This document shows, piece after piece, positions 30,980 to 32,860 of a DNA stretch of 57,088 bases (position 1 is its first letter; the number at the start of each line of letters is the position of its first letter). Both the position numbers and the translations under genes were made by a program. The stretch is from a virus. Taxonomy: Duplodnaviria; Caudoviricetes. The notes under the pieces were generated by a model. That model was not told where the DNA came from and did no database searches. It saw nothing but the letters and a program-made list of their open reading frames with translations. The stretch lies in the IMG/VR virus record IMGVR_UViG_3300037261_000179, positions 1 through 57,088 of that record; one strand, written 5' to 3'.

Positions 30980-31339
30980 TTACCTCCCGCCCATAGGAGA
31001 TGGAACCGCTGGAACCGTAAGAGAACGGTTGCCGTGGTCCAGCTCCCTGGCCCACTGCTGCATATCGTTATTCGACCAGTAGTACTTTCTTAGCCCTTCA
31101 ATCGCCAGCGTATTTTTGTTCGTCTCCATGCTGATACGGTCAAAGCGCGCTTCCAAATCTTTTCCACTCTTGTCGATCTGGGCAATGAGCTCAGAATGCC
31201 AGTCGTCAAAGTAGACCTTCGCCCTGATCGCACAGCAGGCGATGAATACCGCAAACAAAAAACCGGCGCTGATAATCAGCAGCGTGTTTTTCGTGCTCTT
31301 GTCGATCGGAAGGCTTTCAATGACTTCTGAGGGTTCCAT
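30980..31339 (-). CDS. Single-TM membrane protein with a coiled coil
   Basis: LLIISAGFLFAVFIACCAI hydrophobic segment. Confidence 0.7.
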   Translation of the reverse strand: MEPSEVIESLPIDKSTKNTLLIISAGFLFAVFIACCAIRAKVYFDDWHSELIAQIDKSGKDLEARFDRISMETNKNTLAIEGLRKYYWSNNDMQQWARELDHGNRSLTVPAVPSPMGGR

Positions 31340-31340
31340 G

Positions 31341-32075
31341 TCAGGTCTGGGTATTCGCGTTAATCACATACTGGGGCAGCAGCGGGTGTGCGCTGTCGAG
31401 CATATGAAGGTACGTATCCAAGGAGTGAAACGCCGCGAGCTCGTCATCCGCTTCCTTGGTGGAGTCCACCCATAAGGTCGGACCAATGTGCTCATAGCAA
31501 AACAGCGGGTGGATGTCGAAAGGCACCTGCGGAACGAAGTCCGGTACATTGACAACCCGGACGAGCTGCAGTCCGCCGCTGAGCGCCCCTGCTACGAAAT
31601 CCGCATCCCCGACCCGGGGTCCCGCAAACGTGGCCAGAGCGCAGTTGGGCGTATCCACTGCCGCCATTGTAGCCAGGGCGGCACCAAGGCTGTGGCCAGT
31701 CACGATTACCGGCCGGGTTAGCGAGTATAGAAACACCCGCAGCGGCAAATTGCCGGCCTGCAGCGTCTGGTAGAGGTCAAGGAATCCACTGTGCACCCTC
31801 CCGGCTCCGAAAGGGCAGTCCACCGGGAGAGCTTCCGCATCCTTGACCCACTCCCAAAAGCCCTCCGTTCCCCGGATCGCACAAACCCAAGCGGAAAGCT
31901 CAGTATCAAAATAAACGACCCCGTACGGCTTCCGGCCGTCAGGGTCTGTCCCCCAAACAAGCGTGACCTGATTCGACGGCACAGCTACTGCCTCCGGAGA
32001 GGTATGAAATCCCGGCTGGTAGCACGCATTCACTGCGTTTCCCAGCCGGACCAGCTGTGCCGTGGAAAAAGTCAC
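31341..32075 (-). CDS. Class 3 lipase (alpha/beta hydrolase)
   Basis: AIRGT, VHSGF, VTGHSLGAALA nucleophile elbow, TFAGPRVGD, RVVN..DFVPQVP, YEH, HSLDTY; GTG at 32075. Confidence 0.93.
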   Translation of the reverse strand: MTFSTAQLVRLGNAVNACYQPGFHTSPEAVAVPSNQVTLVWGTDPDGRKPYGVVYFDTELSAWVCAIRGTEGFWEWVKDAEALPVDCPFGAGRVHSGFLDLYQTLQAGNLPLRVFLYSLTRPVIVTGHSLGAALATMAAVDTPNCALATFAGPRVGDADFVAGALSGGLQLVRVVNVPDFVPQVPFDIHPLFCYEHIGPTLWVDSTKEADDELAAFHSLDTYLHMLDSAHPLLPQYVINANTQT

Positions 32076-32539
32076 TTGGCAGGGGCAAGAACGGATTGCT
32101 GGCCGGACCAAAAATCAATCCCATGCTGGATACCCAGCGCAAAGTCGGTCAGGGCTGCTCCGACTATCGCCGTATTGGCGTTGGGCAGCGCACCCGTCAC
32201 CCCGGCATTGGCCTGAATGGCTGCGGAGATTAAAGAGCCGACTTGGTTGTACGCAGCGGCGTTCTTTGGGTCGGCCATAGCCGCGGCCTGCAGAGGCTGC
32301 AGTTCGGCGTTGAGCACGCCCATCTGGAAAGGGGTGATCTTTCCAGTAGCCAGCGTAGGCAAAGCGGCGGCGAGGTCCTGGAGACCTTTGAGGGTCGCCG
32401 GATTGTCACTGAGTTTCTTGGTGGCAAAAGCATTCCCCGCAAGGTAGTTTGCCGTGGCGATGTTTTGGGAGGGCGTGCCGCATCCGGCAACAAAAGCGAG
32501 CCCGAGGGCCGCGACGAGTAGAACGAGCATGTTTTTCAT
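32072..32539 (-). CDS. Lipoprotein
   Basis: MKNMLVLLVAALGLAFVAG-C lipobox. Confidence 0.85.
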   Translation of the reverse strand: MKNMLVLLVAALGLAFVAGCGTPSQNIATANYLAGNAFATKKLSDNPATLKGLQDLAAALPTLATGKITPFQMGVLNAELQPLQAAAMADPKNAAAYNQVGSLISAAIQANAGVTGALPNANTAIVGAALTDFALGIQHGIDFWSGQQSVLAPAK

Positions 32540-32551
32540 GTTTTCTGTATT

Positions 32552-32860
32552 TTAGTTTTCGGACGAGACAGCAGGGGGCAAACCCTTGGTGTCAGAAATG
32601 TATTTGGCAGCTGCAGCCATCGTGTGGATGATCATTTGAGCAATCGCTGTTTTCCAGCCCATTCCCATCCCACGGGTGGCGTCGTTGATCACCGGGATAT
32701 TCGAGACCATGACTTCAACACCGTTCGTGCTAACCATGGTCGTGAATGCTGTTGCCGCCGCTACCGCCACCGAGCTCCACAGCCCCAAGCCCCAAGCCCG
32801 CCAGTCAAGATACTTTTTCGGATCGCTGCAAAGGGCCGCAGTTGTCGCAACGGGGTTCAT
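32552..32860 (-). CDS. Holin-like small membrane protein
   Basis: 102 aa, two hydrophobic segments, C-terminal YI....LP; first gene of the membrane cassette. Confidence 0.55.
   Translation of the reverse strand: MNPVATTAALCSDPKKYLDWRAWGLGLWSSVAVAAATAFTTMVSTNGVEVMVSNIPVINDATRGMGMGWKTAIAQMIIHTMAAAAKYISDTKGLPPAVSSEN

Follow-up and report, generated by a model that had tools for sequence, protein, structure and literature searches.

A lipoprotein-coupled class 3 lipase in a candidate envelope or lysis module of an uncultured short-tailed phage

The stretch of DNA analysed here (the window; 57,088 nucleotides) is the entire 57-kb linear record of an uncultured, short-tailed phage (CheckV completeness, 94%). 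On its minus strand, from position 32860 to 30980, four genes encode a 102-amino-acid protein, a lipoprotein, a class 3 lipase and a bitopic membrane protein. The original prediction had described a tightly packed cassette at this site, and all four genes are present at these coordinates, separated by 12 nt, a 4-nt overlap (GTG start with TGA stop) and 1 nt, with 4 nt to the gene that follows. The block lies in the middle of an operon, with fibre genes on one side and three ejection-type genes on the other, an arrangement shared with a complete relative (G001). Five genes upstream of the block encode proteins with export-signal-like N termini. The flanks of the block contain no phage-specific promoter motif and no convincing terminator. 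A megablast search with 25 kb of the record returned no close phage relatives from GenBank, and single-protein locus searches with the lipase or a sulfotransferase-like protein as the query gave no match; an identical lipase is also encoded on a 61,993-bp contig.

The lipase gene (31341..32075, minus strand) most likely starts at the GTG at 32075, which would give a protein of 244 amino acids; this codon overlaps the TGA stop of the lipoprotein gene (GTGA) and agrees with the start sites of relatives. The assignment to class 3 made in the original prediction holds: the Pfam family Lipase_3 matches residues 76–199 of the 256-amino-acid open reading frame (E = 2.6e-21; score, 76.4 bits; cut-off, 22), and the PHROG esterase/lipase family phrog_21992 also matches (E = 2.9e-19). 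Abhydrolase_6 and Hydrolase_4 gave weak matches, leaving Lipase_3 as the only family above its cut-off. All 17 aligned sequences have the GHSLG motif, which includes the predicted nucleophile, and at least 90% of them retain each of the predicted partners, Asp191 and His229 (numbered in the 256-amino-acid frame). The nucleophile corresponds to Ser129 of the 244-amino-acid protein (Ser141 of the longer frame) and is encoded by the AGC at 31689..31691 (minus strand) within GGC CAC AGC CTT GGT. No hydrophobic segment was found at the N terminus, as expected of the signal-less enzyme that had been proposed.

A structural model of the lipase (AlphaFold2; pLDDT 85.5) matched 37 PDB chains at E ≤ 0.001, and phospholipase A1 (PLA1), class 3 lipases and feruloyl esterases are among the matches listed. 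The best solved matches are the plant PLA1 structures 7x0d, 2yij and 7x0c (E = 4e-10 to 2e-9), with fungal lipases ranking next. Across these DAD1-like plant enzymes and the fungal lipases 1tgl and 1tic, E values range from 4e-10 to 1e-6 and TM scores normalized by the query from 0.54 to 0.63, and the GHSLG nucleophile elbow is shared; however, identity is only 19–25%, and the phage enzyme has 244 amino acids compared with approximately 390 in the plant enzymes. The twelve closest relatives of the lipase are 41–50% identical to it, and the next-nearest homologues occur in genome bins of Acidobacteriota, ordinary two-membraned bacteria. The suggestion that the host has atypical peptidoglycan is not supported.

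The lipoprotein (155 amino acids; 32072..32539, minus strand), which had also been predicted, has a lipobox, ending at Cys20, in addition to a signal sequence; all 29 aligned relatives share this Cys. These relatives (43–76% identity) are all unnamed metagenome proteins. The mature protein (135 amino acids) is Ala-rich and helical, with a mean column identity of 50%, and its AlphaFold2 model (pLDDT 75) has five helices after the signal, forming a helical-bundle domain. The model had no Foldseek match at E ≤ 0.001, and the matches from VIA-align were limited to generic four-helix bundles (best Z, 6.6). Searched with a profile of the family, 185,579 species genomes gave no match, and JGI metagenomes gave only two short fragments and one contig that also encodes a related lipase (L001).

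The bitopic protein that closes the cassette (119 amino acids; 30980..31339, minus strand) has, as anticipated, a single strong transmembrane segment (residues 20–38; Kyte–Doolittle score, 2.79). The segment follows a short N terminus and precedes a helical part of about 80 amino acids that is predicted from the topology to face the periplasm. The protein belongs to no PHROG or Pfam family. Its homologue in L001, which follows the lipase there (32% identity; E = 1e-12), shares a C-terminal motif, Trp-Ser-Asn...Asp-Met...Trp-Ala...Leu-Asp. A profile of the bitopic protein matched the L001 contig alone, a search of 5.8 billion clusters yielded no relative beyond this homologue, and the ESM Atlas returned only unnamed viral clusters for the bitopic protein and the lipoprotein. 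A complex predicted for the mature lipoprotein and the periplasmic portion of the bitopic protein scored 0.01 (mark, 0.32), a result that is uninformative either way.

The 102-amino-acid product of the first gene of the block (32552..32860, minus strand, with an ATG start) has one borderline hydrophobic segment (residues 25–43; Kyte–Doolittle score, 1.52) and a second, weaker one (0.97), consistent with a membrane protein, but it matches no Pfam or PHROG family; because of the borderline hydrophobicity and the lack of a family, the holin label is only a guess. At the same position, G001 encodes a 97-amino-acid protein with two transmembrane segments (1.72 and 1.78) and no detectable similarity to the protein in the window.

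Homologues of the lipoprotein, lipase and bitopic protein also occur side by side in L001 (65%, 35% and 32% identity, respectively), where they are the last genes of a late operon. G001 has a diverged block in the same gene order: its lipase is 30% identical to that of the window, its lipoprotein is recognizable only at E = 0.006 and its bitopic protein could not be aligned, compared with 49–58% identity for the genes that flank the block and 90% for a capsid protein. Divergence so far beyond that of the flanks fits a fast-evolving module that would act on the host envelope. Judged by gene order and sequence similarity, the trio is a conserved, mobile candidate envelope module, preceded by a small hydrophobic protein that is variable, and the comparisons support the idea that the block may behave as a self-contained envelope or lysis module.

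Such a module need not serve lysis. It could instead act in superinfection exclusion or envelope conversion, with the lipoprotein and bitopic protein altering or masking envelope components, much as the T5 Llp or Cor lipoproteins do, and the lipase remodelling lipids. The family of the lipoprotein is well conserved and has a member at one locus (L094) that lacks any lipase, the block sits among exported genes for host recognition, and it has been replaced as a unit between close relatives. All of this would suit such a role; however, the envelope would be out of reach for a signal-less lipase as long as the cell is intact, no signal for expression independent of late promoters was found upstream of the block, and lipases of this type adjoin endolysins at four other loci, described below. 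We regard a role in exclusion as unlikely.

Class 3 lipases were found at 24 other viral loci in IMG/VR. At four of these, an endolysin gene is the first or second downstream of the lipase, in the company of small membrane proteins and lipoproteins: the order is two small membrane proteins, lipoprotein, lipase and lambda-type lysozyme in L006; lipase, small lipoprotein and T4-type lysozyme in L024 and L055; and lipase, small lipoprotein and an endolysin of phrog_894 (E = 4e-35) in L072. At the remaining 20, no endolysin was found within three genes of the lipase among the 25 of 48 families listed. Open reading frames that satisfy strict lipoprotein rules are enriched near the lipases (4 of 96 nearby compared with 4 of 741 elsewhere at these loci; Fisher P = 0.008). 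Two cultured phages carry the class 3 lipase outside a lysis context, beside a dCTP deaminase in Cr-LKS4 and among hypothetical genes in Xoo-sp13. The proposal that the block occupies the lysis slot is thus upheld in part, by the recurrence of the trio in L001 and G001 and by the four loci with a nearby endolysin; its first gene is no recognizable holin, however, and the block lies in the middle of an operon. No support was found for a lipase standing in for a missing endolysin: at the four loci with a readable context, an endolysin is encoded as well.

The same comparisons bear on whether the lipase is an entry enzyme. By analogy with type VI lipase effectors, which are paired with immunity proteins, the lipase could be packaged or ejected along with the internal proteins encoded directly downstream and open the outer membrane during infection, and the periplasmic lipoprotein could protect the infected cell in the manner of an immunity protein. 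Both in the window and in G001, fibre genes lie on one side of the lipase gene and the three ejection-type genes on the other; in L001, the lipase gene comes immediately after a large ejection-type protein; and the order of lipoprotein before lipase resembles that of immunity–effector pairs. These features are consistent with this scenario. We nevertheless consider it improbable. Fold similarity to the type VI lipase complex 9cys is marginal (rank 44; E = 0.02), and no type VI genes appeared among the scanned open reading frames of the window; the same type of lipase occurs in the lysis cassettes of L006, L024, L055 and L072; and two distant relatives, G002 and G003, retain the ejection module without any lipase.

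Unlike a canonical holin–endolysin–spanin cassette, the window yielded no endolysin. From 145 listed open reading frames, we scanned those of at least 110 amino acids and a few shorter ones that were judged to be plausible genes, covering 60 with PHROGs and 57 with Pfam (a set that excluded four replication and packaging frames, those of the helicase, exonuclease, polymerase and large terminase). No endolysin family was found among them (in one Pfam batch, among the 25 of 28 families listed), and six-frame searches with nine Pfam endolysin families matched 0 of 4 records each. Searches of Pfam, PHROGs and PDB sequences gave no match for the 1,629-amino-acid ejection-type protein, and no recognizable family of peptidoglycan hydrolases was found in the complete relative G001. 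The absence of a recognizable endolysin that had been reported for the window is therefore confirmed at the level of hidden Markov models, a level at which divergent hydrolases are missed; structural models were made for two proteins only.

The gene adjacent to the block (30430..30975) was weighed as a hidden endolysin because its product is the sole protein shared with both G002 and G003 at E ≤ 1e-5. We rejected this candidate: Pfam assigns the protein to Citrate_synt, and its best solved relatives are a citryl-CoA lyase (E = 1.7e-4) and citrate synthases. The distant relative G003, a complete genome, has the citrate-synthase-like gene and neither a lipase nor a recognizable endolysin; therefore, the missing endolysin does not track the lipase. 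That two complete genomes (G001 and G003) lack a recognizable endolysin points to either an undescribed family of wall hydrolases or an unusual route of exit.

One such route had been proposed for this phage, namely exit by lipolysis alone, in which no peptidoglycan hydrolase is made, membranes are broken down enzymatically and the wall is either thin or opened by host autolysins that the collapse of the membrane triggers. The lack of endolysin families in the window and in G001 is compatible with this idea. Lacking a signal peptide, the lipase could act on the inner membrane from the cytoplasmic side, and the five upstream genes with export-signal-like N termini would suit a scheme in which fibres are exported. 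There is also a precedent of a kind in phage WO, for which a patatin-type phospholipase has been proposed, without proof, to act in entry into or exit from Wolbachia (PMC8248633); the fold is different, and WO also encodes an amidase. However, an endolysin adjoins the same kind of lipase in the four loci with a readable context, and the complete G003 has neither a lipase nor a recognizable endolysin, so that the absence is common to distant relatives and is not compensated by the lipase. Divergent hydrolases escape profile searches, folding covered two proteins, and the window is 94% complete, with the 61,993-bp contig that bears the identical lipase also in existence. These observations speak against the proposal that lipolysis replaces wall hydrolysis, and we think it improbable that exit proceeds in this way. 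A still bolder version, to which we give very little credence, is that the whole podophage lineage exits without a dedicated peptidoglycan hydrolase, with a PLA1 that is guided by the lipoprotein and released late dissolving the membranes and uniting capsids with pre-exported fibres. If this were true, exit and final virion assembly would be a single lipolytic step; the meeting of capsids and exported fibres after membrane breakdown is pure inference.

We tentatively favour, at a little less than an even chance, a reading in which the block is an accessory to lysis that breaks the outer membrane in the manner of LysB or a spanin, with cutting of the wall as a separate step. LysB of the mycobacteriophages Ms6 and D29 is likewise a signal-less serine esterase or lipase in a lysis-type block. 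It is generally placed in another family of alpha/beta-hydrolases and cleaves the mycolyl-arabinogalactan ester of mycobacteria. As far as is known, LysB always accompanies the endolysin LysA, whereas the block described here has no detectable endolysin, and the phage enzyme differs in being a PLA1-like member of Lipase_3 with lipoprotein and bitopic partners. LysB is proposed to strip off or break down the outer lipid layer once the wall has been cut; PMC12173070, which concerns a GDSL lipase, cites it as the model. That lipase lies upstream of a holin and an endolysin in a siphovirus of Pseudomonas syringae, a host with two membranes. In a fusion with an endolysin, outer-membrane-dependent killing requires the catalytic residues of the lipase (PMC12173070). 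It is of another family, has a carbohydrate-binding domain and is accompanied by an endolysin, and the text available in PMC12173070 mentions no coupled lipoprotein.

The resemblance to spanins is one of topology. As with Rz and Rz1 of lambda, a lipoprotein and an N-terminally anchored helical protein are encoded together, matching the topologies of an outer- and an inner-membrane spanin, respectively; unlike the spanin genes, those of the block are in reversed order and have an enzyme gene between them. Outer-membrane spanins are small and Pro-rich, whereas the mature lipoprotein here is 135 amino acids long, Ala-rich, well conserved and folded as a predicted helical bundle. Neither the lipoprotein nor the bitopic protein has a PHROG spanin match. 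Counted against an accessory role were the large, Ala-rich and well-conserved lipoprotein, unlike outer-membrane spanins, together with the unrecognized holin, the 20 of 24 loci without a nearby endolysin and the lack of an endolysin partner in the window. The contexts in Cr-LKS4 and Xoo-sp13, the L094 lipoprotein without a lipase and the mid-operon position were counted in the same way.

Under an accessory role, the module would be transcribed late, together with the tail genes, producing an outer-membrane-type lipoprotein that is translationally coupled to a cytoplasmic PLA1-like lipase, followed by a bitopic protein of the inner membrane. Once the inner membrane is permeabilized, the signal-less lipase would gain access to the periplasm, where, with its lipoprotein partner, it may hydrolyse glycerophospholipids in the inner leaflet of the outer membrane and possibly also in the inner membrane. 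Its task would then be that of spanins, or of LysB in mycobacteriophages. Peptidoglycan could be cut by a divergent enzyme, by a domain within a large virion protein or by host autolysins. The substrate of the lipase, when and from which side it acts, and what the lipoprotein and bitopic protein contribute are inferred.

In the literature searched, no description of a class 3 lipase in a phage lysis cassette was found and, to our knowledge, lipolytic lysis enzymes are textbook material for mycobacteriophages only. If the favoured reading is correct, such modules may also provide parts for endolysin-based antibacterials that need to cross the outer membrane, a use for which a fusion of lipase and endolysin is reported to work (PMC12173070). 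For phages of two-membraned hosts, a lipoprotein-coupled class 3 lipase would, if the reading is true, be a further enzymatic means of breaking the outer membrane, beside spanins.

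The window is a single contig of 57,088 bp, the entire virus record, with a CheckV completeness of 94%. It has no terminal repeat and no tRNA genes, and megablast with 25 kb of the window found no near-identical phage in GenBank. The phage is podovirus-like, with two arms divided by strand. The plus-strand arm (1–22757) encodes a methyltransferase, an APS-kinase-like protein (5901–6335; best Pfam APS_kinase E 9.9e-11; PHROG kinase E 4e-23), a helicase, an exonuclease, endonuclease VII, a DUF5906-type protein, a family-A DNA polymerase and a RuvC-like resolvase. It closes with tandem paralogues (21316–22035 and 22065–22757) that have weak ‘head protein’ PHROG matches and a repeat-like C-terminal part; both are 45% identical to one and the same protein of G001, a close relative. 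The minus-strand late arm runs from the large terminase, portal, major capsid protein and two SU10-type adaptors through a tail-collar protein, an 805-aa virion protein and several fibre-type genes to the lipase block; beyond it lie a citrate-synthase-like gene, a sulfotransferase-like gene and the genes of three ejection-type proteins (282, 437 and 1629 aa). The fibre-type genes 5′ of the block (32950–42354, minus strand) have signal-peptide-like N termini, as read from their translations.

The block comprises, on the minus strand, a 102-aa protein (32860–32552), a 155-aa lipoprotein (32539–32072), a class-3 lipase (32075–31341) and a 119-aa bitopic protein (31339–30980). The genes are separated by 12 nt, a 4-nt GTGA overlap and 1 nt, and the next gene follows after 4 nt. 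Because the 89-nt gap 5′ of the block holds neither a copy of the repeated promoter-like motif of the phage nor a good σ70 match, the block is probably transcribed by read-through from the fibre operon.

The original prediction of a lipase is well founded. The protein matches Pfam Lipase_3 (E 2.6e-21) and phrog_21992 (esterase/lipase; E 2.9e-19), and lacks a hydrophobic segment at its N terminus. GHSLG is invariant across 17 aligned sequences, and an Asp and a His are each conserved in 90% or more of them. Relatives of the lipase start at the position matching the GTG at 32075, so the real protein most likely has 244 aa; a 256-aa TTG ORF and a 213-aa database call were rejected. The structures closest to the AlphaFold2 model (pLDDT 85.5) are the plant phospholipases A1 7x0d, 2yij and 7x0c (E 4e-10 to 2e-9), followed by fungal triacylglycerol lipases. 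A search of 5.8 billion clusters yielded 1523 candidates, 350 with E ≤ 0.001. The closest group consists of 12 unnamed metagenome proteins (41–50% identity) and the next of proteins of about 300 aa (31–34%), some named from Acidobacteriota bins. An identical lipase also occurs on a 61,993-bp contig.

The lipoprotein and single-transmembrane assignments hold as well. The lipobox Cys is invariant among 29 lipoprotein relatives (43–76% identity, all unnamed), several motifs are conserved, and the bitopic protein, which has a single known relative, contains one strong transmembrane segment. Four of the 29 lie on contigs equal in size to those of close lipase relatives (10085, 2110, 4122 and 2335 bp), a coincidence that hints, without proving it, that the lipoprotein and lipase genes share contigs. 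As modelled, the lipoprotein forms a helical bundle for which we found no specifically matching solved structure. The holin-like label given to the first gene is not justified, as its product has borderline hydrophobicity only and no family. A better-looking candidate for a two-transmembrane holin or exclusion protein is an 81-aa ORF in the early arm (2315–2560, plus strand), whose product contains a pair of strongly hydrophobic segments (KD 2.61 and 2.68), with a weak match to an unnamed PHROG (E 9e-4) as its only match. Superinfection exclusion is a live alternative function for the block itself.

G001 is complete by CheckV (100%): this IMG/VR record spans 60,527 bp and has terminal repeats. 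Its capsid, portal and terminase, which are 90%, 73% and 72% identical to those of the window, mark it as a genuine relative. G001 preserves the order of a signal-bearing fibre, a 97-aa two-transmembrane protein, a 150-aa lipoprotein, a 236-aa lipase-like protein (GHSRG; Lipase_3 only at E 0.009), a 114-aa bitopic protein, citrate-synthase-like, sulfotransferase-like and ejection genes, with the four block genes far more diverged than their flanks. One of 32 scanned G001 ORFs matches the Pfam Acb2/Tad1 hairpin domain (E 1.4e-6), which suggests a possible anti-CBASS or anti-Thoeris sponge in its early region.

On L001, an 18.8-kb contig, a 1527-aa ejection-type protein is encoded farther upstream; a fibre-like protein and an Ig-like protein with a signal sequence then lead straight into the lipoprotein (65% identity), lipase (35%) and bitopic protein (32%). 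These three are the final genes ahead of a convergent pentapeptide-repeat gene. Given this recurrence, the trio moves as a unit and can occupy an operon end. A pentapeptide-repeat protein of the window (1241–1894, plus strand; best Pfam Pentapeptide E 2.3e-31) is 80% identical to the fragment adjoining the trio (L001 11833–12069, minus strand), compared with only 35% for the lipase. The 547-aa fibre-like protein of L001 is without a signal-peptide-like N terminus. Elsewhere, a 40-kb viral contig (L094) encodes a lipoprotein 68% identical to that of the window (8956–9489), with no lipase or bitopic partner in the 19.5 kb examined.

At E ≤ 1e-5, the citrate-synthase-like protein is all that the window has in common with two very distant podophage records, G002 and G003; capsid, portal and terminase similarity is undetectable by blastp. 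This 181-aa citrate-synthase/citryl-CoA-lyase-like protein (30430–30975, minus strand; 35–39% identity) has citryl-CoA lyase 6hxp as its best solved relative (E 1.7e-4). Both records retain sulfotransferase-like and ejection genes by position and lack the lipase block. The sulfotransferase-like gene (29918–30544, minus strand), directly before the ejection genes, has a P-loop-like motif and matches phrog_10855 ‘hydrolase’ (E 1.6e-10); it is kept by position in G001 too. In G003, which is a complete record, the 1743-aa ejection-type protein is followed by what looks like a lysis-type pair, a hydrophobic protein of 91 aa and a lipoprotein of 199 aa (21988–22859, minus strand), without a recognizable endolysin or a lipase.

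The claim that no endolysin is recognizable is borne out at profile level. PHROG searches of 60 window ORFs revealed no family of peptidoglycan hydrolases, and neither did Pfam searches of 57, among the matches listed (25 of 28 families in part of the scan). Inspection of the unannotated ORFs by eye likewise turned up no motif of a lysozyme, amidase or peptidase. Six-frame searches for the nine commonest endolysin Pfam families (Phage_lysozyme, Amidase_2, SLT, Peptidase_M15_4, Glyco_hydro_19, Glyco_hydro_108, Amidase_3, Peptidase_M15_3 and Glyco_hydro_25) each matched none of the window, G001, G002 and G003; control genomes gave matches. In G001, 32 ORFs picked by eye as unannotated hit 12 Pfam families, none muralytic. 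From these negatives we take the absence to be real at profile level and common to two complete genomes, G001 and G003. It falls short of proof, because structure models cover only the lipase and lipoprotein and because long parts of the large virion proteins carry no annotation.

A lipase profile search of IMG/VR gave 292 relatives and 80 retained loci, from which 24 non-redundant loci were examined, leaving out giant-virus records. In four (L006, L024, L055 and L072), the lipase is followed within two genes by a proven endolysin: a lambda-type lysozyme (L006; E 9e-27 to 3d3d), T4-type lysozymes (L024 and L055) and phrog_894 (L072; E 4e-35). In all four, the lipase has small membrane proteins and a lipoprotein next to it. 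No endolysin was found near the lipase in the other 20, among the matches listed. A lipoprotein directly precedes the lipase in L004 and L009, and an N-terminally anchored helical protein directly follows it in L051; strictly defined lipoprotein ORFs are commoner near the lipase (4/96 versus 4/741, p 0.008). Two cultured phages (Cr-LKS4 and Xoo-sp13) carry a class-3 lipase gene outside a lysis context. A virion-borne entry enzyme is a second live alternative for the lipase of the window. The stronger form of the original prediction, that the lipase stands in for an endolysin, is weakened because class-3 lipases accompany endolysins elsewhere and G003 has neither; we consider it improbable.

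Lipases described from phage lysis cassettes are LysB of mycobacteriophages and the GDSL lipase carried by a Pseudomonas syringae phage (PMC12173070); a patatin phospholipase has been proposed to act in entry or exit of phage WO (PMC8248633). Among the papers listed, the literature searches yielded no lysis-cassette lipase beyond LysB and the GDSL enzyme, and no class-3 lipase in a phage lysis cassette. The reading that suits the evidence best is that the block is a lysis accessory acting on membrane lipids: the lipase would have a role like that of LysB or a spanin substitute, and would cooperate with a separate wall-cutting activity.
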